64,000 nt of DNA from an uncultured Gammaproteobacteria bacterium (GCA_963817615.1 CAWFPH010000003.1:30718-94717); one strand, 5' to 3'. Shown: positions 14,335-28,359, counted from the stretch's first letter. Translations and numbers: made by a program. The notes: generated by a model from the letters alone, not told the origin.

Positions 14335-14850
14335 ATGCCGAAGCAGAGTAGCCAAAAGTTCATTGCGAGGAATCGAGCGCCTCGCGTGCAGATCGAGTAC
14401 GACGTGGAGGTGTACGGGGCCGAAAAGAAGGTCCAGATTCCATTCATCATGGGAGTGCTCTCCGATCTTGCCGGTAAGCAGGAAGATCCCTTGCCGCCGA
14501 TCGAGCAGCGCAAGATGATGGAAATCGACATCGACAATTTCGACAGCCGCATGAAGGCCCTGAAGCCTAGGGTCGCCTTCGCCGTTCCGAACACATTGAC
14601 GGGCGAAGGGAATTTGAAAGTCGACATCACCTTCGAGAGCTTGGAGGACTTTTCGCCGGCTGCCGTAGCGCGCAAGGTCGCGGGACTCGACAAGCTTCTC
14701 GAGGCTCGAACGCAACTCGCGAATCTCGTGACGTTCATGGACGGCAAGGCCGGCGCCGAGCAGCTCATTACAAAGGCCCTGAAGGACGAAAGTCTGCTGC
14801 AGGCTCTGGCTTCCCAGAAGAAATCGGCAGACGAGCCGGCCGCGGAGTGA
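14335..14850 (+). CDS. tssB: TssB (VipA) small sheath subunit
   Basis: Intact 171-aa ORF. RVQIEYDVEVYGAEKKVQIPFIMGVLSDLAGK is the canonical TssB core. Confidence 0.95.
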   Translation: MPKQSSQKFIARNRAPRVQIEYDVEVYGAEKKVQIPFIMGVLSDLAGKQEDPLPPIEQRKMMEIDIDNFDSRMKALKPRVAFAVPNTLTGEGNLKVDITFESLEDFSPAAVARKVAGLDKLLEARTQLANLVTFMDGKAGAEQLITKALKDESLLQALASQKKSADEPAAE

Positions 14851-14855
14851 GATAG

Positions 14856-16353
14856 ATGGCAGAAGCAAAAACCGAAAAGGAAGGCGCGGCGCAGGCGCAA
14901 GAGTCGCTTGGGGCAGATGATTTCGCGCAGCTGCTAAAGAAGGAATTCCGCCCGAAGTCGGACCGCGCCCGCGAGCAGGTCGAAGCGGCCGTGCAAACCC
15001 TGGCTCAGCAAGTGCTGAGCGACCAGGATTTGATCCTCGACGACGCCGTCAACTCGATCAATGCGATCATCGCTGAAATCGATCTGAAGATGACGGAGCA
15101 GGTCAACCTGATCCTGCACCACCCGGAGTTCCAGCAGCTCGAGGGTGCCTGGCGCGGGCTGAGCTATCTCGTCAAGAACACCGAGACCGACGAGATGCTC
15201 AAGATCCGATTCATGCCCATTTCCAAAACGGAGCTGTCGAAGACACTCAAGAAGTTCAAGGGCGTTGCGTGGGATCAGAGCCCGCTGTTCAAGAAAGTTT
15301 ACGAGGAAGAGTACGGGCAGCTCGGCGGCTCACCGTTCGGCTGTCTCGTAGGCGACTATTCACTTCGACCATAGCCCGCCCGACGTCGAGATTCTTCAAG
15401 GGATGGCGCAGATCGCGGCCGCCGCGCATGCGCCGTTCATTGCCGGAGCGAGCCCGACCGTGATGCAGATGGACTCCTGGCAGGAGCTGACGAACCCGCG
15501 CGATCTGACGAAAATCTTCACGACGCCCGATTACGCGGCGTGGCGGTCGCTTCGCGAGTCCGAGGATTCGCGCTACATCGGTCTGGCCATGCCGCGGTTT
15601 TTGGCGCGGCTGCCCTATGGCGCGAAGACGGACCCCGTCGAAGAGTTCGATTTCGAGGAGGACATGCAGGGTTCCGACTCGAGCCGCTATGCTTGGGCGA
15701 ATTCTGCGTACGCGATGGCCGTGAACATCAACGCCGCATTCAAGCTGTACGGCTGGTGCTCGCGGATTCGCGGCGTCGAGTCGGGCGGCGCCGTCGAAGG
15801 ATTGCCCGTGCACACGTTTCCTTCGGACGACGGCGGCGTGGACATGAAGTGTCCGACCGAGATTGCGATCAGCGATCGTCGGGAAGCGGAGCTCGCGAAG
15901 AACGGGTTCATGCCGCTGATTCATCGAAAGAACACCGACATCGCGGCGTTCATCGGTGCTCAGTCGCTGCAAAAGCCCGCGCAGTACGAGGATCCCGACG
16001 CCACGGCCAACGCCGAATTGTCGGCGCGTCTGCCGTATCTGTTCGCGAGCTGCCGGTTCGCCCACTATTTGAAGTGCATCGTCCGCGACAAGATCGGCTC
16101 GTTCAAAGAGCGCGCAGACATGGAGAAGTATCTGAACGACTGGATTCTCCAGTACGTGGACGGTGATCCGGCAAACTCCACCGAGCAGGTCAAGGCGCGC
16201 AAGCCTCTGGCGGGAGCCGAGGTGACCGTCGAGGAGGTCGAAGGAAATCCAGGTTACTACACATCGAAGTTTTTCCTGCGGCCGCACTATCAGCTCGAAG
16301 GGCTGACAGTATCGTTGCGGCTCGTTTCGCGTCTGCCCTCGCAAAAGGGTTGA
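14856..16353 (+). pseudogene. tssC: TssC (VipB) large sheath subunit, 1 frame change
   Basis: ORFs 14856..15374 and 15403..16353 join into one TssC (ILHHPEFQQLEGAWRGLSYLV; MAQIAAAAHAPFIAGASP). The frame change near 15360 sits inside GDY-x-FDHSPPDVEIL. Confidence 0.9.
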
Positions 16354-16414
16354 CGGGATGAGCGGCGGCTAGGGACGGGAATTTTACATTTAAGAAGAAC
16401 GAGGAGAAGAAGCC

Positions 16415-16896
16415 ATGGCGGTCGACGCATTCTTGAAGATGGACGTGAAGGGCGAGTCGGTGGTGGATGGCCACGAAGACGAGATTCAGCTATTGTCGTG
16501 GTCGTGGGGCATGAGCCAGACCGGGACCACTCACCGCGGAACTCGGGCGGCGGCGCGGGCAAGGTGGACGTACAGGATCTCAGCTTCACACATCACGTCG
16601 ACGCCGCGTCGGCCAATTTGATGCTCGCGTGCTGTAATGGCAAACATTTTCCCGAGGTAAAGCTGACCGTGCGCAAAGCCGGTGAGAAGCCTCTGGATTA
16701 CCTCGTGATCGACGCTGACCGATATGCATCATCACGTCGGTTGCTCCGGGCGGCGCAAGCGGCGACGAGCTGATCACCGAGCACGTCACCTTGAATTTCG
16801 CGAAATTCAAGGTCTGCGTATCAACCGCAAGACAACAAAGGTGCGAAAACGGGCGGAGCCATCGAGGTCGAGTACGACATCGCGAAGAACAAGTAG
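16415..16896 (+). pseudogene. hcp: Hcp (TssD), about 4 frame changes
   Basis: Strong SD (AGGAGAAGAAGCC-ATG). MAVDAFLKMDVKGESVVDGHEDEIQLLSWSWGMSQTGTTH, then GGGAGKVDVQDLSFTHHVDAASANLMLACCNGKHFPEVKLTVRKAGEKPLDYLVI, then IITSVAPGGASGDELITEHVTLNFAKFKV, then YQPQDNKGAKTGGAIEVEYDIAKNK*. Changes near 16540, 16714, 16728, 16817. Confidence 0.85.
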
Positions 16897-16939
16897 CGCT
16901 CGCTGAGCGGTCCGCAATGACGGCCGACGGTCGGGGCCT

Positions 16940-17773
16940 ATGACCACGGACGCGCGCGAGCTACTGCGTCAAGGCGACGTGTCGGCGGCCCTCCAGTCGT
17001 TGCAAGCGCAAATCCGAGCCGAGCCGGCGAAGTCGGAGCACCGCGTTTTTCTTTTTCAGCTGCTCTGCGTGATCGGCGAGTGGGACCGGGCGCTGACACA
17101 GCTCGCTGTTGCGGGAGAGATGGATGCGGGCACGCTCGGGATGGTCCACGTCTATCGGTCGGCCGTGCTTGCCGAGGCGCTTCAGGCGGGAGGTTTTCGC
17201 CGGCCGGAAGACGCCGTTGATGTTCGGTGATCCCGAGGAATGGATCGCGCTGCTGCTCGAGTCGCTGAAGTTGACCGCGCTCAGCGAGATCGCGAAGGGC
17301 CAGGGGCTGCGCGAGCGAGCTTTCGAGCTCGCGCCTGCCGAGCGGCGGGCTCGTGAATGGGCGACCGTTCGAGTGGCTGGCCGATGCGGACGTCCGGCTC
17401 GGGCCGACGCTCGAAGCCATCATGAACGGCCGCTACTACTGGATTCCGTTCCATCGCATCGCAGAGTTGCGGATCGAGGAGCCCCAGGATCTCAGGGATC
17501 TCGTCTGGTTGCCGGCTCAGCTGAAGTGGACGAACGGCGGGCGAAGCCGTCGCGTTGCTGCCGACGCGCTACCCTGGTTCGGAGAGTCGGCGGATTTCGC
17601 GGATTCGTCTTGCGAGGCGCACGGAATGGGTGGACCAGGGGCAGGACGTCCATTTCGGTCTCGGTCAGCGGATCCTCGCGACCGACGTCGACGAAGTTCC
17701 GCTGATGGACGTGCGCACCGTAGTGTTTTCGGCGCCTCCTGCCGATCAGCCGAATCCCGGCGCGAATGGCTGA
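16940..17773 (+). pseudogene. tagJ: TagJ (ImpE-family T6SS accessory protein), at least 3 frame changes
   Basis: Four ORF pieces carry colinear ImpE-family sequence (REVFAGRKTPLMFGDPEEW; NGRPFEWLADADVRLGPTLEAIMNGRYYWIPF...PQDLRDLVWLPA; ALLPTRYPGSE...GLGQRILATD). Changes near 17195, 17348, 17540. Stop overlaps the tssE start. Confidence 0.8.
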
Positions 17774-18264
17774 GCTGACTCCACAGGAGCGGCTGCAGCC
17801 GTCGTTACTCGATCGTCTCACTGACCTCGAGCCCGACAAGAAGGTCGAGGCCCGAGACCGGCGGGTGCTCTCGGTCCGGCGTCTGCGGGAGAGCGTGCTG
17901 CGCGATCTTGCTTGGCTGCTCAACACCGGCCACCTCGAAACGGTGCAGTCGCTCGAAGCCTACCCCGCCGTCGCGGCGTCCGTCGTCAACTACGGCGTGC
18001 CGGATTTTTCCGGACTCGTCGCGGCGGCCATGGATTCTGCGCTGCTCGAGAAGTCCGTGCAGAAGGCCATCGTCGATTTCGAGCCGCGAATAGCACGCAA
18101 GTCTTTGCGAGTCACCGTGGTCGATTGCGAAAGAGTCGATGAGCCGCAACGCGATGACGTTCAAGATCGAAGGAGAGCTCTGGGCTGAGCCTACGCCGCT
18201 GGCGCTGTTTCTGAAGACGGAGCTCGATCTCGAGAGCGGTCACGTGACGGTTCGCGAGAGTTAG
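17766..18264 (+). pseudogene. tssE: TssE (gp25-like baseplate protein), 1 frame change
   Basis: QPSLLDRLTDLEP...LRESVLRDLAWLLNT core. After a change near 18135 the C-terminus reads [42 protein letters not shown]. Confidence 0.85.
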
Positions 18265-18274
18265 AGTCCCCCCC

Positions 18275-20156
18275 ATGGACCCCCGTCTCCTTCGCTACTA
18301 CAACCGAGAGCTGCAGCACATCAGCGAGATGGGCGCCGAGTTCGCGAAGGAGTTCCCGAAGATCGCCGGGCGCCTCGGCATGGAGAGCCTGCCGGTCGCG
18401 GACCCGTACGTCGAGCGTCTTCTCGAGGGCTTTGCGTTTCTCGCAGCACGCGTCCAGCTGAAGATCGACTCGGAGTTCCCGCGGTTCACGCAGAACTTGC
18501 TGGAGCTCGTCTATCCGCACTACCTGCCGCCTCTGCCGTCCATGGCGGTCGTGCAGTTTGCGCCGCTCTTGGAAGAAGGAGCCCTCGTCGACGGGTTCCT
18601 GCTGCCGCGCGAAACGAGCGTGCGAAGCAACATCGGGGGCGGCGACAAAACCGCGTGCGAGTTTCGAACGGGCCAGGACGTTAGGCTCTGGCCGATAGAG
18701 ATCACCGAGGCGAAGTACTTCGGCACGGCCGGCGCTTTGGCCACGATCGGAATCGATCGCCTCGACAAAGTTCGCGCGGGTATTCGACTGCGGCTAAGAA
18801 CGACCGGCAGCGTTGCGTTCGATCAGCTGCCGCTCGACGAGCTCATGTTCTACTTGAAAGGGACCGGCACGCCGCAGCTCGTAGCGCGCCTCTACGAGCA
18901 GCTGCTCGGCAACGCTCTCGGTTTCGTCGTTCGGCCGAAAGGTGGCGCCCAAGCCTGGCAAGACTATCACGAGGGCAGCGAGTCTGCGGGCCGTGGGGTT
19001 CGAGCGTTCGCAGGCGCTGCTCCCGCCGGTGCTACGGACCTTCGAAGGCTACCGATTCCTGCAGGAATATTTTGCGTTCCCCGGGCGATTCCTATTCGTG
19101 GAGTTCTGCGGTCTCAACAAATCGATTCGTAAATGCACGAGCACGGAGCTCGAGGTCGTCGTGCTTCTTGAACCGGCGCGACCCCGAGCTCGAAAACGTC
19201 GTCGACAGGGAGCACTTCGCGCTGAATTGCGCGCCGGTGGTGAACCTCTTTCCCAAACGAATGGACCGTATCCATCTCGGTCACGGTCAGCACGAGTATC
19301 ACGTCGTCGCGGATCGCACGCGACCGATGGACTTCGAAGTGTGGTCCGTCTCCGAGGTGCAAGGCTTTGGCGCCGGCGCTCAGCCCGAGAAGACGTTCTT
19401 CCCATTTTACGCTCATCACAATCGAAGCTCCTCGGCGGATACCGCGTTCTACAGCGTTCACCGCGAAGCGCGGCGGCCGTCGTCGGGACAGCGAGAACGC
19501 GGCGCCCGGTCGAGCTATTTGGGAAGCGAAACCTATATCTCGATCGTGGACCCGAATCACGCGCCGTATCAGTCGAGCTTGCGCCAGCTGGGCGTGCAGG
19601 GAATCTGCACGAATCGCGACCTGCCGTTGCATATGCCGCTCGGCCGTGGATCGACTGACTTCACGCTCGAAACCGGCGCGCCCGTGGAGTCCATTCGCTG
19701 CGTGGCGGGTCCGACGAAGCCGCGACCGTCGGCTGCCCAGGGCGAGACGACATGGCGGCTCATCAACCAACTGTCCCTCAATTACTTGTCCCTCGTCGAC
19801 GACGCGCCGGCGGCGGCGCGGATGCGATTCGCGCGCTGCTCGAGCTTTACGCCGATGCCAATGACCCCGTCACGCGGCGGCAGATCGAAGGCGTGAAGTC
19901 CGTGAGCTCGCGTCCGGTCAACCGGCGAATACCGACCAGCGGCCCGATTACCTTCGGTCGCGGAGTCGAGATCGGCGTGACTTGCGACGAGGCGGCTTTC
20001 GAGGGTGTCGGTGCGTTTCTATTCGGCACGGTGCTGAACCAGTTTTTTGCCAAATACGTTTCGATCAACTCATTCACCGAAACCGTGCTCACTTCCACCG
20101 AGCGCGGCGAGATCATGCGATGGCGGCCAACGTTGGGGCGAACGCAAATACTCTGA
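18275..20156 (+). pseudogene. tssF: TssF baseplate subunit, 3 frame changes
   Basis: MDPRLLRYYNRELQHISEMGAEFAKEFPKIAGRLG... is the canonical TssF start. Four colinear ORF pieces, with changes near 18940, 19172, 19805. Confidence 0.9.
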
Positions 20157-21145
20157 GCGTGCTCGCAGCGTTCGAGCGGGACGCGCACGAGCTCGACTTT
20201 TTCGCCGTGCTGCGTTTTCTCGAATGCCTGCATGCGGATGCGCCGCGTTTCGGGGCGGCGGCCCGACCCGTCGACGAGGCCGTGCGGATGGGCCAGGAGC
20301 CGAGTCTTGCATTCGCGCCGTCGACGCTGGCGAGCTTCACGGCGGGCGACACGGGCCGGCCGCACCGCCTCAGCACCTATTTTTTCGGTTTGTTCGGTCC
20401 GCAGGGTCCGTTGCCGTTGCACTTGACGGAATTCGCGAGGGAGCGCGAGCGCAACGCAGACGATCCGACATTTCGGGCGTTCGCCGACATGTTCCACCAT
20501 CGTTTGGCGCTGCTGTTCTACCGAGCCTGGGCCGACGCTGAACCGTGCACGAGTCTCGATCGGGCGGCGTCGAGACGTTTCGATGCGTACGTCGGCAGCA
20601 TGTTCGGAATCGGAACTCCGGACTTCAACGGCCGCGACAGCGTGCCGGACGACGCGAAGCGGCATCTCGCTGGCTTGTTCGCGATGAGCACCCGCCCGGT
20701 CGTTGCGCTCCGATCAGTCTTGGAAGAGTTCTTTCGTCTGCCGTTCGCGATCAGGGAATTCGTCGGAGAGTGGCTGCGAATTCCGGCGGACGATTGGTGC
20801 TTACTCGGTTCGTCCGCGGCGCGGCTCGGCGTCGACGCCGTCGTGGGACGTTCCGTCTGGACCTGCCAGCACAGGTTTCGAGTTCTCTGCGGCCCGTTGA
20901 GCTTCGACGACTTCACGGCGATGCTGCCCGGCAACCTCAGCCTGCGCAGATTGCGCGATCTCGTGCGCGACTTCATCGGCCACCAGCTCGAATGGGACGT
21001 CAATTTGATCCTGAGGGCGACAGACGTTCCACGGCTCGAGCTCGGCCAGTCGGGCGCGCTCGGTTGGACCACCTGGCTCGGCGAGCGGCGGACGAGCGCC
21101 GACGCGTACGACGTGATCATTCATCCGGCCATCGCGTTGGCTTGA
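20120..21145 (+). CDS. tssG: TssG baseplate subunit
   Basis: ORF 19982..21145 trimmed to ATG 20120 (MAANVGANANTL...FDFFAVLRFLEC...). Intact. Overlaps the tssF end by 37 nt. Confidence 0.9.
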   Translation: MAANVGANANTLSVLAAFERDAHELDFFAVLRFLECLHADAPRFGAAARPVDEAVRMGQEPSLAFAPSTLASFTAGDTGRPHRLSTYFFGLFGPQGPLPLHLTEFARERERNADDPTFRAFADMFHHRLALLFYRAWADAEPCTSLDRAASRRFDAYVGSMFGIGTPDFNGRDSVPDDAKRHLAGLFAMSTRPVVALRSVLEEFFRLPFAIREFVGEWLRIPADDWCLLGSSAARLGVDAVVGRSVWTCQHRFRVLCGPLSFDDFTAMLPGNLSLRRLRDLVRDFIGHQLEWDVNLILRATDVPRLELGQSGALGWTTWLGERRTSADAYDVIIHPAIALA

Positions 21146-21185
21146 CGCTCGGCGCGAAGCGGTTACCAAGAGAGGCGGCATAGTC

Positions 21186-23919
<2,734 letters not shown>

Positions 23920-24059
23920 CGGCGCCGGTGCGAGAAGTCTTGCGAGCCCCGGCAAGCGTTGCCTCCGTTACGCGCCGACGCCGAGGCGATTCGGCTTGGG
24001 GAAACTGCTCACCGAGATACAAGCGGCCACATACGCCGGGTGAGCGGCAACGGCTTGGG

Positions 24060-25529
24060 CTAGCCGTTTGCGATGGACGCAATCTCGTGCGCCGCGATGT
24101 AGTCGACGTTCGCGCCTCCCGCGAAAGCGATCAGGCCGCTCTGCCGCACGGCTGACTCGAGCTCGCTCGCTCAGCACGATCTCGACCGGTGGCTGAACGG
24201 CTTGCCCGCCGCCGTCGTCGTAGACGGGCATCGGCAGGTCGGGTACCTCGAGCGCGCCATGGAGCGGCCAACGCCGGCGGTCGGTCGCGGCTGCGGTGCC
24301 AGCAGATACGCGCACGCGAAGGCCGGGATTGGCCCACAGAAAATGCTCTTTGCCGGGTCGGACCGGCAGCTCACGGAACGCGAACGAGTCGATCGAGTCC
24401 GTGCGCTTACCGAACGGTTGGCGCAGCAGGAAACGCGGCGTCGCGAGGCCGATCCAATTCGCCGCCGGGTGGCTGCGCACGTCGTTCCACAGCTGCGCCA
24501 GGTCCGAGTCGGCTGCCCAGTCCCACGGCGCTGTCGGCGTCGGCATCGGAGCGGCAACCGCATAGGCTCAGGTCGCCGTGCGCGAGAAGCGGAATTTCCG
24601 CGCGCCCCGCGATCGCGCCAACCGTCGTGAGTAGCAGCAGGTCTTCGGGATTCAGACCGAAGGTGTAGTCGGTGACGATCGACGTCCCAGTTCGCGTCGT
24701 CGACGCGTCCGTCGAGCAGAACGGATAGGGGCGCCGTGCCGAGACTGGTGGAGTGCGCATCGAGCTCGGCGCGCAACGCATCCTTCGCAAGGTCGACGAC
24801 ATACAGCTCCGCTTGGTCCTCCTCGAGCCGGCTGACGAGCCAATGCACGCTGCGCCAAGCGCGCTCGATGTCGCGAAAGTCCGGATGCGTCAATACCGCC
24901 CGCATTGCGCCCGTCAGCACGTCGAGCGCCTGCTGCCGGCGTTGCTTCGCCGTTGCCGAAGAGGGGCGAGCGTGCTCCCGAGCCGAGCGCATCGCGGATC
25001 AGCGATTGAACGACCTGCTTCGCCTTGCCGCCCTGCCGCTCGGAGGACGCTGACCCAGCAGTCTTTCGAGCAATTGCGTCTCCATCTTCTCGGCCTCGAG
25101 CGTCCGATTGTTCGGCCGGCGCCCGCGTAGTGGCTTCGGCCTGGCCGCCGTAGCGGCGATCCCAGTCGCGGAGCGCGGTTTCCTCCGTGAGCGGGTTCTC
25201 GAGGCGCCCGTAAAAGGTCAACGAGCTCTTGAAGCGCGCCGATGGCGGCGACCAGACGGTCGGGATGGAAATCCTGCAGCGCCGCGATCGCGAGCTTTCG
25301 TGTATCGCCACGGGGCCGTCGAGGCCGAGCGGATGCGCGGGTCGAACGCGGCGATTACGTCATCCAGGCTCTCCACCGAGACGCGGCGCGGGACGAGTGA
25401 TTCGGTCGGGTTCGACAATCGGCCCGAAAGGCCCGCGAGGATCAGCACCTGCAGCGGTCGCTCGCGGCGCGCGGCGCGGACGCCGGATCCACGACCCAGA
25501 CTGACCTCTAGCTGCGCGCGTCCGCTCAT
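24060..25529 (-). pseudogene. sheath-like paralogue: TssB-like N-terminus fused to TssC-like body, at least 6 frame changes
   Basis: N-terminus RAQLEVSL...PLQVLILAGLSGR...RRVSVESLDDVIAAFDPRI...LQDFHPDRL parallels TssB. Next, VLTHPDFRDIERAWRSVHWLV parallels the TssC motif ILHHPEFQQLEGAWRGLSYLV. Then WIGLATPRFLLRQPFGKRTDSIDSFAFRE...HFLWANPAFACAYLL...LPMPVYDD. Pieced from ORFs 25218..25529, 24652..25311, 24171..24992, 24407..24802 and 23968..24546. Confidence 0.6.
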
Positions 25530-25698
25530 GATGTAGACTAAGTGATTGAGACCTGCGTCTAAGTTAACTTACAATATTATTCAATAGCGTAGGTGGGGTA
25601 GTTAAAGTCGAATACGCTTCGAGGATGCTCGACGTAACGCTGCGTCCGTCGCTAGCGGCCAACTTGCATGATGGACCAACATCTTTGCGGAGTCACTC
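25530..25698. promoter_or_regulatory. AT-rich divergent intergenic region
   Basis: Local GC is far below the flanks (e.g. TAAGTTAACTTACAATATTATTCAATAGCG). Lies between the start of the minus-strand sheath-like gene and a plus-strand ORF. Confidence 0.3.
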
Positions 25699-25980
25699 AT
25701 GGCGCGTCCGACGATCGTTGACATCGACTACTATCGCTTTCGCCAAGCGTTGCGTCGCGCCACCGACTCTGGCGAGCGCATCGAGCCCGCGGACAAGAAA
25801 CGTTGGACGGATTGGGTTCGCGAGAATCGGATCAAGGAAGGCGCCTTCAGGTCGTTCGCCAACGGGAAGTACCAAGGCCTCGAGCCGGTGATCATCGACA
25901 ATAACGGCGAGTGGCGGGGCTACTATTTATTCTCCGAAGAGGAGGAAGCTTGCCTGAAGTGGGAGCGCAGCACGACTTGA
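25699..25980 (+). CDS. hypothetical small protein (93 aa)
   Basis: ATG preceded by GGAG 8 nt upstream. Lower GC than its surroundings. No recognisable family. Sits just upstream of the vgrG promoter candidate. Confidence 0.4.
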   Translation: MARPTIVDIDYYRFRQALRRATDSGERIEPADKKRWTDWVRENRIKEGAFRSFANGKYQGLEPVIIDNNGEWRGYYLFSEEEEACLKWERSTT

Positions 25981-25996
25981 TCGATCCCGAGCCCGG

Positions 25997-26024
25997 TTGA
26001 CACGCTCCGGGCCGTCCGTATAAG
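25997..26024 (+). promoter_or_regulatory. sigma70-type promoter candidate upstream of vgrG
   Basis: TTGACA (25997-26002), 16-nt spacer, TATAAG (26019-26024). About 100 nt upstream of the vgrG ATG. Confidence 0.45.
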
Positions 26025-26127
26025 TAGAAGCGTGCCGCCGTCTACGCGACGCCGACGAGTGCGGTACGCCTGGCACCGCAACAACAACGACAAACTGACG
26101 AGGCGCGGCCGATTTGCGGCCTATTTC

Positions 26128-28359
26128 ATGAGCAGCCAGCCGGTCCGCGTAAAGACGCCCCTCGGAGAGGATCTTGCTGTTCAGCGGCATGGAGCTTACG
26201 GAGGAGCTTGCGCGCCTGTACTACTGCGAGCTCGATCTCTTGAGCGCGAAGGAGGACATCGAGCTCGACGACGTGCTCGGCAAGGACGTGACGGTCGAGA
26301 TCGATCAACCGGACGCGGACACGCGTTATTTTCACGGGATCGTCACGGAATTTGCGCAGACGGGTCGTGAGGGCGACTATGCGCGTACACGGCGATCGTG
26401 CGTCCGTCATTGTGGTTCCTGACTCGCACCGCGGACTGCCGTATCTTTCAGGAGCTCAAGGCTCCGGAGATACTCAAGGAGGTATTCGACGATCACGGAT
26501 TTCCCGTGAAGTTCTCCCTGAGTGCCACCTATCGGAAGTGGGAGTACTGCGTGCAGTACCGCGAGACCGACTTCAACTTCGTGAGTCGGCTCATGGAGCA
26601 GGAAGGCATCTACTACTTCTTCGAGTACGAGTCCGGGAAAGCACACATTGGTACTCGCAGATGCCTACGGTGCCCACAACGCCATTCCGGGGTACGCGAA
26701 GATTCCGTACTTTCCCACCGTCCGCGAACGTCGTCCGCGAGCTGCATATTTACGATTGGCATTTGCGGCGCTCGGTGCAGTCCGGGGCTTATGTGCTGAA
26801 CGCGTTCCACTTCAAGAAGCCGCGCGCGGATCTCAAGGCGAACAGCTCCGTGTCGCGCGACCATGCATTGGCGGAGCACGAGGTCTACGACTACCCGGGC
26901 GAGTATTACGAGAAGTCGGAGGGTAACGAATACGCGCGCACGCGCATCGAGGAGCTCCAAGCGCAGTACGAGCGCGTTCGGGGCCAGACCAACGTGCGTG
27001 CGCTGTTCCCGGGCGGTCTATTCGAGCTCACGGACTATCCGCGGAAGGACCAAAACCGCGAATACCTCGTCTTGTCGACGCGCCACAGCTTGCACCTCGG
27101 CGACTATGGCAGCGCGGGCGGCGAGGGGCTCACGTATAGCTGTACATTTTCGGCGATGAGCAGCCGCGAGCCGTTTCGGCCGGAGCGGACCTCTCCGAAG
27201 GTGTTCGTGCAAGGGCCTCAGACCGCGATCGTCGTCGGGCCCGTCCGGAGAAGAGATTCACACGGACGAGTTCGGCCGGGTGAAGGTGCAATTTCATTGG
27301 GATCGCTACGGCAAGTCCGACGAGAACAGCTCCTGCTGGATACGCGTGGCGTCGGTGTGGGCCGGTAAGCAATGGGGCGGCATCGCGATCCCGCGAATCG
27401 GCCAAGAGGTCATCGTCGACTTCATCGAAGGGGATCCGGATCGCCCGATCATCACGGGCCGCGTCTACAACGCCGACAACAAGCCGCCGTACGACTTGCC
27501 GGCGAACAAGACGCAGAGCGGCATGAAGAGCCGCAGCTCGAAGGGCGGCTCGCCGGCGAATTTCAACGAAATCCGCTTTGAAGATCTGAAGGGCTCGGAG
27601 GAGATGTACATCCACGCCGAGAAGAACCAGACGATCATGGTCGAGAACGACAAGGCGGAGACGGTCGGCCACGATAACACGGAGAGTATCGGTCACAATG
27701 AAAAGATCGACGTCGGGAACAATCGCGATAAGACGGTCGGCGTGGACCAGTCGGAGAAGATCGGCAGCAACAAGACCATCTCGGTCGGCTCGAACCATAC
27801 CGAGACGATCGGCGCCAACAAGAAGCTCGATGTCGGGAGTAATCACACCGAAACCGTTGGCTCGAACATGACGATCACCGTGGGCTCGAACCTCACGGAG
27901 ACGGTGGCGATCAACTATGCGGAAACGGTCGGCGCGGCCATGGAGCTTACCGTGGGTGCCGCAATGACCGAGACGGTCGGCGCGAACAAGACCCAGACGA
28001 TCGGCCACGACAAGTCCGAGACGATCGCCGCGAACAAGACCGTGAGCGTCGGCAAGGACGAATCGGTCACGATCGGCAAGAACGCCTCCGCGAGCATCGG
28101 CGAGTCGCGAACGTTGTCGGTCGCCAAGGATCAGAACGTCGACATCGGCAAGAATCTCGTGATCAACGCCGGTGACGCGATCACTATCCAGACCGGCAGC
28201 GCGACGATTTCGATGAAGAAGGACGGCACGATCTCGATCAAGGGCAAGGACATCACGATCGAAGGCAGCGGCAAGATCAACGTGAAGGCGTCCAGCGACG
28301 TCACGATCAAGGGATCGAAGAGTGCTGCAGAACTGATTGGACGAGTATGCGGAGGCTGA
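26128..28359 (+). pseudogene. vgrG: VgrG spike protein, about 6 frame changes
   Basis: Colinear VgrG sequence across 6 ORF pieces: RYFHGIVTEFAQTG; LWFLTRTADCRIFQ; YCVQYRETDFNFVSRLMEQEGIYYFFE; GPQTAIVVGP; GRVKVQFHWDRYGKSDENSSCWIRVASVWAGKQWGGIAIPRIGQEVIVDFIEGDPDRPIITGRVYN. A gp5-like beta-helix follows. Changes near 26168, 26385, 26645, 26715, 27245. A probable change near 28320 would give the typical end GSK-VLQN* at 28336. Confidence 0.9.
27658..28179 (+). repeat. VgrG beta-helix: degenerate tandem 24-nt (8-aa) coding repeats
   Basis: About 20 units of x-x-x-T/S-x-x-V/I-G (ETVGHDNT ESIGHNEK IDVGNNRD KTVGVDQS EKIGSNKT ISVGSNHT ETIGANKK ...). This is protein-structural periodicity, not a CRISPR array. 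Confidence 0.7.

Follow-up and report, generated by a model that had tools for sequence, protein, structure and literature searches.

Introduction

Can the two chains of a type VI secretion system (T6SS) sheath be joined in a single protein, and what would such a protein do beside the ordinary pair? The question is raised by a gene in a stretch of DNA from an uncultured Gammaproteobacteria bacterium (GCA_963817615.1 CAWFPH010000003.1:30718-94717), the whole of which, 64,000 nucleotides, is referred to here as the window. The gene, here called FUS, comprises about 490 codons on the minus strand between clpV and vgrG and can be read only via about ten frame changes. It had been described in an initial annotation as an extra sheath-like gene in which a TssB-like N-terminus is fused to a TssC-like body. 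This description was borne out by the presence of VipA and VipB domains together in intact single open reading frame (ORF) relatives. The coordinates, the gene order and the convergence on clpV given at that time also proved correct when compared with the ORF pieces and the alignment path.

We identify FUS, with very high confidence as to both identity and architecture, as a fused TssB-like/TssC-N-domain sheath paralogue. With moderate confidence, the overall evidence is best explained by a conserved accessory T6SS family that encodes a one-sided, non-polymerising sheath protomer, the gene seen in the window probably being intact in the organism. The fusion family is widespread.

Domain architecture in intact relatives

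The architecture of FUS is clearest in relatives with unbroken frames. In a metagenome-assembled genome (MAG) of the same genus (G015; L002/L015), the same slot is occupied by an uninterrupted ORF of 487 amino acids (P0001), which is convergent on clpV and divergent from vgrG. The Pfam domain VipA (PF05591) was found at residues 9-111 of P0001 with 32.3 bits (cut-off 24), and VipB (PF05943) at residues 198-483 with 151.5 bits, covering profile positions 6-299 of 301. In the family member from Methylobacter marinus, VipA was found at residues 38-148 with 55.7 bits against the same cut-off. The intact relatives are single ORFs of 473-515 amino acids with both domains. The similarity is thus not restricted to TssC, since VipA scores above the Pfam cut-off in these relatives, and the region does not represent two separate genes, since the relatives carry both domains in one uninterrupted ORF. 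Unlike in stand-alone TssB (about 170 amino acids), the TssB-like part is here fused to a VipB domain.

The protein stops short of a complete TssC. The second VipB domain, VipB_2 (PF18945), gave no match in P0001, in the M. marinus member or in the Parasedimentitalea marina member, and the ImpC and ImpD controls were positive. The match of P0001 to the NCBIfam TssC model (TIGR03355) ended at position 344 of 473 with 146.8 bits, below the equivalog cut-off of 271.5, and its score for TssB (TIGR03358) was 32.3 bits, below the equivalog cut-off of 97.25. Among curated NCBIfam models, none names the fusion family. Sequence matches in the PDB comprised TssC chains over residues 204-483 of P0001 and TssB chains over residues 20-109, and homology extended over residues ~20-125 of TssB and ~16-344 of TssC. 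The initial annotation had stated that the part behind the TssB-like segment parallels TssC; this holds for the VipB N-terminal domain and not for TssC as a whole, as VipB_2 is missing and the protein ends before the gp25-like domain. FUS is a single-chain copy of the sheath protomer with the linker strand, strands and helices of TssB and the N-helix and middle domain of TssC. It is without the inner gp25-like Domain 1 of TssC and the C-terminal linker strand.

Predicted structure and conserved connectors

The AlphaFold2 (AF2) model of P0001, based on an alignment of 105 sequences, is a confident single unit with a predicted local distance difference test score (pLDDT) of 85.7 and a predicted template modelling score (pTM) of 0.82. 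Confidence was low at residues 1-18, 129-146 and 157-164. The top Foldseek matches of the model were TssC chains of the Pseudomonas aeruginosa, Vibrio cholerae and Myxococcus xanthus sheaths (5n8n_B, 3j9g, 5urw), and ranks 10-19 held weak matches to baseplate and sheath chains of contractile injection systems (CIS).

In the canonical sheath, Domain 1 of TssC accepts the N-terminal strand of TssB and the C-terminal strand of TssC, Domain 2 is a mixed TssB/TssC sheet, and the TssC N-helix forms part of Domain 3, a helical bundle (PMC5807055). Read against this anatomy, the modelled FUS protein would equal Domains 2 and 3 plus the TssB arm, minus Domain 1 and the C-terminal arm. Tubule formation by HsiC, a TssC protein, has been shown to require its C-terminus (PMC3597794).

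Two segments outside the folded core are well conserved. The N-terminal arm (alignment columns 1-13) reaches 2.3 bits and a helix with the motif LLxRLLG (columns 147-158) reaches 2.65 bits, versus 1.4-1.6 bits for linker and loop positions; the helix is as conserved as the core. That the arm and the helix are conserved yet modelled with low confidence fits segments that would fold on a partner. The arm parallels strands beta1 and beta2 of the TssB encoded in the same cluster. The N-terminus of FUS begins at the beta1 motif and is without the TagJ-binding extension QKFIARNRAP that is present in the cluster's own TssB.

Distribution and phylogeny

A search of 5.8 billion proteins returned 162 relatives, most of them already annotated with PF05591 and PF05943. 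Relatives with at least 90% query coverage measured 449-538 amino acids and had one VipA-like part. Using one peptide pattern, 193 loci were found in species-representative genomes of Acidobacteriota, Gemmatimonadota, Planctomycetota, Verrucomicrobiota, Myxococcota, Desulfobacterota and Pseudomonadota, including Competibacteraceae. Methylobacter marinus and M. luteus are cultured carriers among these. At least 190 species thus carry a family member. P0001 is an intact orthologue, and more than 100 relatives keep the fusion as one ORF. The PLSDB plasmid protein search yielded partial matches of canonical TssC type and no full-length member of the family.

A maximum-likelihood tree placed the fusion proteins, and with them the read-through translation from the window, on one side of a branch with 100% support in the Shimodaira-Hasegawa-like approximate likelihood ratio test (SH-aLRT) and TssC and ImpD on the other. 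(The tree row labelled 'L028_TssC' is actually the fusion gene of locus L028.) Within the fusion clade, the window copy was sister to a protein designated P0039 (98% and 99% SH-aLRT). Its best identity to any retrieved member was 54%, and it keeps all 16 invariant and 41 of the 44 near-invariant residues of the family.

A search of 40 relatives at the DNA level found only one orthologue, that of G015, as its rapid divergence puts the gene beyond the reach of DNA matching. A TssC-like match was present in only two of the 23 same-genus genomes searched, the genome of the window (G000) and G015, both of which carry FUS. Within this genus, the T6SS island thus seems to be accessory.

The gene in the window and its frame breaks

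Five overlapping ORF pieces on the minus strand make up the gene in the window (25218-25529, 24652-25311, 24171-24992, 24407-24802 and 23968-24546). A frameshift-tolerant alignment to P0001 unites them as one path from the ATG at 25529 to 24075. This path is 49% identical to P0001, changes frame about ten times and contains no in-frame stop; the stop codon lies near 24061. Three of the pieces match VipB PF05943 (E 4e-7, 6e-3 and 3e-13), together spanning profile positions 10-271. The N-terminal piece taken alone gave no VipA match in Pfam and a sub-threshold match to TssB TIGR03358 (12.9 bits, E 0.068). The features of the locus are collected in Table 1.

Table 1. Features of the FUS locus and associated T6SS genes (positions in the window).
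Feature	Position	Strand	Basis
FUS, TssB-like/TssC-N-domain sheath paralogue	24061..25529	-	ORF pieces; frameshift-tolerant alignment to P0001; family residues kept
TssB/VipA-like part: N-terminal linker-strand motif, beta2 motif PLQVLILAGLSGR, FHPD helix	25190..25529 (approximate)	-	PF05591 in P0001 and M. marinus member; TIGR03358 (E 0.068) in window piece; N-termini compared with canonical TssB
Low-complexity linker with conserved LLxRLLG helix, counterpart of TssC N-terminal helix	24926..25189 (approximate)	-	AF2 pLDDT <60 for P0001 residues 129-189; columns 147-158 conserved like core; aligns with M. xanthus TssC N-terminal helix
VipB (TssC) N-terminal domain; protein ends where VipB_2/gp25-like domain would be expected to start	24075..24925	-	PF05943 on three pieces; P0001 matches; Foldseek
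Sigma-70-like promoter match, ~45 nt upstream of ATG 25529	25576..25605	-	TTAACT-18-AATAAT, 9/12; consensus match only
Divergent sigma-70-like promoter match, towards small ORF and vgrG	25546..25575	+	TTGAGA-18-TACAAT, 10/12
Intact 93-aa ORF between FUS and vgrG	25699..25980	+	73% identity to 98-aa ORF in same slot of L095; tblastn in L015, L018, L038, L040, L041
clpV, ClpV1-type, convergent neighbour	21186..23916	+	84% identity to L015 ClpV; ~10 frame changes; 0 stops
vgrG, divergent neighbour	26134..28188	+	51% identity to L015 VgrG; ~5 frame changes; 0 stops
Canonical tssB	14341-14847	+	83% identity to L095 protein
Canonical tssC	14856-16347	+	84% identity to L095 protein; 1 frame change; VipB matches in two frames

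Are the broken frames a property of the organism or of its assembly? Across ten T6SS genes (window 14341-28188), 37 frame events and no nonsense codon were counted, about ten events in FUS and 27 in the nine other genes (11.5 kb), which also have no in-frame stop. FUS had been called the most heavily frame-broken gene in the window; this was not upheld, as clpV also has ten events and hcp is the densest (four events in 0.47 kb). tssB and tssG have none. The events are mostly single-base insertions, and a test of their homopolymer context gave no enrichment. Outside the island, the genes rpoB, ileS, valS and leuS have open frames, and only one of about 70 ABC_tran domains is split. A segmentation of the contig (C3) with a hidden Markov model of GC phase at third codon positions (GC3) was too noisy, calling large stretches 'non-coding', FUS among them, and was replaced by this family-based sampling.

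We consider the frame breaks likely to be an artefact, namely errors left in the consensus when long reads of a metagenome were assembled over an island with poor coverage and strain variation, because they are indel-only, insertion-biased and free of nonsense codons and leave the constrained residues fully kept, where neutral decay would differ. FUS is accordingly probably intact in the organism itself. Two points speak against this: the errors are concentrated about 100-fold in the T6SS island, and indel placement at 72-79% nucleotide identity is approximate.

The copy could instead be a true pseudogene, with the whole T6SS island decaying and the frame changes being real mutations. The confinement of the damage to the island, next to clean housekeeping genes and ABC domains elsewhere, would fit such decay, and loss is plausible for a system found in so few genomes of the genus. 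However, none of the 37 events is accompanied by a nonsense codon on the reading paths, the invariant residues and nearly all near-invariant ones are kept, and, in ClpV and TssC, 84% identity to the orthologues persists. Natural bacterial indels are expected to be deletion-biased and repeat-associated. The events here are mostly +1 insertions away from homopolymers, and a pseudogene is judged unlikely. The window copy is ordinary for its family, and its broken frames would tell more of assembly than of biology.

Two further observations concern frame damage beyond this island. In the crude and noisy GC3 model, 10-kb bins of C3 at ~610, 770, 810 and 1840 kb showed abrupt changes of coding phase in numbers equal to or above that of the T6SS island and may be further locally damaged patches. 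In a Terriglobia MAG (L063; G041:C5:284655-286542), the canonical tssC is also split across frames, and frame splits in T6SS genes thus occur in another MAG.

Genomic context

Eighty loci were surveyed for context against a small reference set, which makes the neighbour counts lower bounds. Four settings were distinguished. In about 20 loci, including the window and the roseobacter case discussed below, the fusion gene lies between clpV and vgrG in either orientation. In 14 loci of Acidobacteriota and Gemmatimonadota it lies directly upstream of tssB-tssC-hcp-tagJ. It stands beside vgrG with no other core gene detected nearby in about 22 loci, and alone among unrelated genes in 16. Of the loci, 61 had 3 kb or more on either side of the gene; a T6SS core gene was found within 8 kb in 45 of them and vgrG within 1 kb in 20.

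Ordinary tssB and tssC were present in every genome tested. Each of the five genomes with a solitary or vgrG-only copy that were tested encodes a canonical TssC with VipB_2 at another site. In copy counts for five genomes, a single fusion gene was present in four and two were present in the fifth, and every genome had one tssBC pair. P. aeruginosa H1-type clusters predominate, usually with TagJ. Like ClpV1 of P. aeruginosa (PDB 4uqw; PMC4239648), the orthologous ClpV carries Arg6 and Asp87 in its N-domain.

Several neighbours of the fusion gene deserve mention in their own right. In the window, two sigma-70-like promoter matches lie between FUS and the small ORF, versus 0.5 expected. The 93-amino-acid product of that ORF (73% identity) is better conserved than FUS (~49%) or VgrG (51%), and no family could be assigned to it. 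In several phyla, the fusion gene has one or two methyltransferase-like genes (DUF7059-MTS-DUF7782) as neighbours within its T6SS cluster (L096 11455-14443; also L019, L030, L055, L072, L076, L084, L089, L091 and L094). They may form a functional partnership with it, for example in protein methylation. In M. marinus A45 (L029 9503-11404), a Ser/Thr protein kinase gene directly follows the fusion gene, and the island DUF6931-vgrG / fusion-kinase lies ~29 kb from canonical tssBC.

Proposed function

Current knowledge of how sheath assembly in the T6SS begins on the baseplate and ends distally is incomplete, and it is unclear what the distal end consists of (PMC5813253). The role of FUS is probably accessory and non-polymerising; it is considered accessory because every tested genome also has ordinary tssB and tssC. 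Without Domain 1, FUS would accept no linkers from other subunits, make no contact with Hcp and not polymerise. It would retain two outgoing connectors, the TssB-type N-terminal arm and the TssC-type N-helix. Because these outgoing connectors are kept and the accepting, polymerising domain is lost, attachment would be possible in one direction only: FUS could dock on a Domain-1 acceptor and could not itself be built upon. For the same reason an end-specific assembly factor is an obvious role to consider for the family, which also has the design of a natural 'dominant-negative'.

Two acceptors can be envisaged. If FUS docked on the last sheath ring, it would act as a cap or elongation stop; if it docked on TssE in the baseplate, it would complete a 'ring zero'. 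Linkers of the wild-type sheath run from every subunit to the neighbouring ring on the baseplate side, and those of the first ring have been proposed to be accepted by TssE, a homologue of Domain 1 (PMC5813253). FUS would in either case be an end-specific assembly factor and not a second spring; a self-sufficient second sheath was considered and rejected. We regard such end-specific docking as a tentative mechanism. Its fullest form is speculative and on present evidence doubtful: FUS would be an unrecognised end-specific subunit that inserts its TssB-type arm into the Domain-1 acceptor of the last ring, capping the sheath and setting its length like phage tail-terminator proteins, or into TssE, reconstituting a complete pseudo-protomer at the baseplate.

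Several considerations weigh against a structural role at the sheath end. The docking partner is proposed from models of single chains. The H1 system of P. aeruginosa and many other T6SSs work without FUS, which is therefore not a general requirement. A role connected with the spike would be about equally compatible with the context, since vgrG lies within 1 kb in 20 of 61 loci. Finally, the conserved LLxRLLG helix could be a handle for ClpV rather than a sheath contact.

Could FUS belong to sheath recycling instead? It might regulate, or be handled by, the ClpV1/TagJ branch as a soluble sheath mimic that offers its TssC-type N-helix to ClpV, acting as a decoy, adaptor or assembly checkpoint and not as a structural end piece. 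In alignment, the nearly invariant LLxRLLG helix falls on the N-helix region through which TssC binds ClpV, the fusion gene often adjoins clpV, and the clusters are of the ClpV1/TagJ type, in which the canonical TssC is without the LLDEII motif (PMC4239648). However, the Arg6 and Asp87 found in the orthologous ClpV block the helix-binding groove in ClpV1 (PMC4239648), the TagJ-binding N-extension of TssB is missing from FUS, and many copies lie far from clpV or alone. A recycling role is on these grounds quite unlikely.

It is also improbable that FUS serves VgrG specifically, as a loading protein or adaptor moving along with the spike module. The 20 loci in which vgrG adjoins include vgrG islands with no other core gene detected nearby. 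Between the window and L015, the divergence of FUS (49% identity) is like that of VgrG (51%), and ClpV and TssC stand at 84%. This faster divergence may, however, stem from weaker constraint alone, as TssG, TssE and Hcp are also only 62-65% identical. Moreover, the copies in Acidobacteriota and Gemmatimonadota head a tssB-tssC-hcp operon with no adjoining vgrG, most tested genomes have a single copy, and the protein has a sheath fold with nothing resembling known adaptors. The Tvp paper on VgrG accessory proteins makes no mention of a sheath-like protein. The fusion family stands beside otherwise ordinary H1-like systems in hundreds of mostly uncultured species.

Comparison with known systems

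The closest reference point is the canonical sheath itself. TssB and TssC (VipA/VipB, HsiB1/HsiC1; PDB 5n8n, 3j9g, 5urw) are homologous to FUS and have the same fold, and the motifs FHPD, ERAWR, PRFLLRxPYG and LWGNPA are common to both. In contrast to the canonical pair, the fusion family consists of one chain instead of two, is without Domain 1, the C-terminal linker strand and the TagJ-binding N-extension, and evolves faster.

Second, divergent TssC-related genes inside T6SS clusters are also known in the form of ImpD/TssC40. TssC40 of Agrobacterium (Atu4340) is needed for Hcp secretion and is not redundant with TssC41 (PMC3702570). Such examples, together with the weak TssB score of the window's own N-terminal piece, could suggest that FUS is an ordinary second TssC of this type, or two genes once the frames are corrected; this is extremely improbable, as the ImpD-type paralogue is ruled out by architecture and by the branch with 100% support, and two separate genes are ruled out by the intact single-ORF relatives. 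ImpD of Rhizobium etli has VipB and VipB_2 and no TssB-like part, is encoded directly after tssC (ImpC) and groups with canonical TssC, and the fusion family stands apart from both TssC and ImpD in the tree.

A likeness of idea is found in extracellular contractile injection systems (eCIS), whose specialised sheath paralogues (e.g., Pvc3/Pvc4 and Afp3/Afp4) are sheath-derived and used at one sheath end. These paralogues come from another sheath lineage, their single chain being ancestral, and the comparison with FUS made here is one of concept.

The initial annotation knew of no described single-chain form of TssB and TssC. Such a form had in fact been published: TssCL of the roseobacter T6SS1 clusters was described, by its domain content only, as a protein of 1,684 amino acids with two VipA domains and one VipB domain, one VipA being nearly identical to the cluster's TssB (Suria et al., 2022, Front Microbiol; PMC9515649). 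No other TssB-TssC fusion emerged from searches of the literature. TssCL and the fusion family are alike in having VipA and VipB in one polypeptide and in occurring in H1-like clusters that keep separate tssB and tssC. The VipB part of TssCL is only ~31% identical to its cluster's own TssC (PMC9515649). Unlike TssCL, members of the fusion family have about 490 amino acids and one VipA-like part and occur in many phyla, whereas TssCL was reported as confined to Alphaproteobacteria (PMC9515649).

A link between the two is suggested by Parasedimentitalea marina, in which a 512-amino-acid 'sheath large subunit' is encoded between tssH and tssI, as in the window. This protein matched the fusion-family profile over columns 98-523 (probability 100%, E 8e-49), at an identity to the fusion family of only ~24-27%; TssCL of Leisingera ANG-M7 was likened by its published description. 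On plasmid pW43D of P. marina (L102 3953-5898), the homologue is annotated as two genes, a 136-amino-acid 'hypothetical' ORF with the N-arm/beta2 motif abutting the 512-amino-acid ORF, which may reflect a single gene split by annotation or by a frameshift. Because of the profile match and the upstream N-arm motif, TssCL and the fusion family can be regarded as branches of one kind. The published TssCL would then be one branch of a broad family and not a roseobacter oddity.

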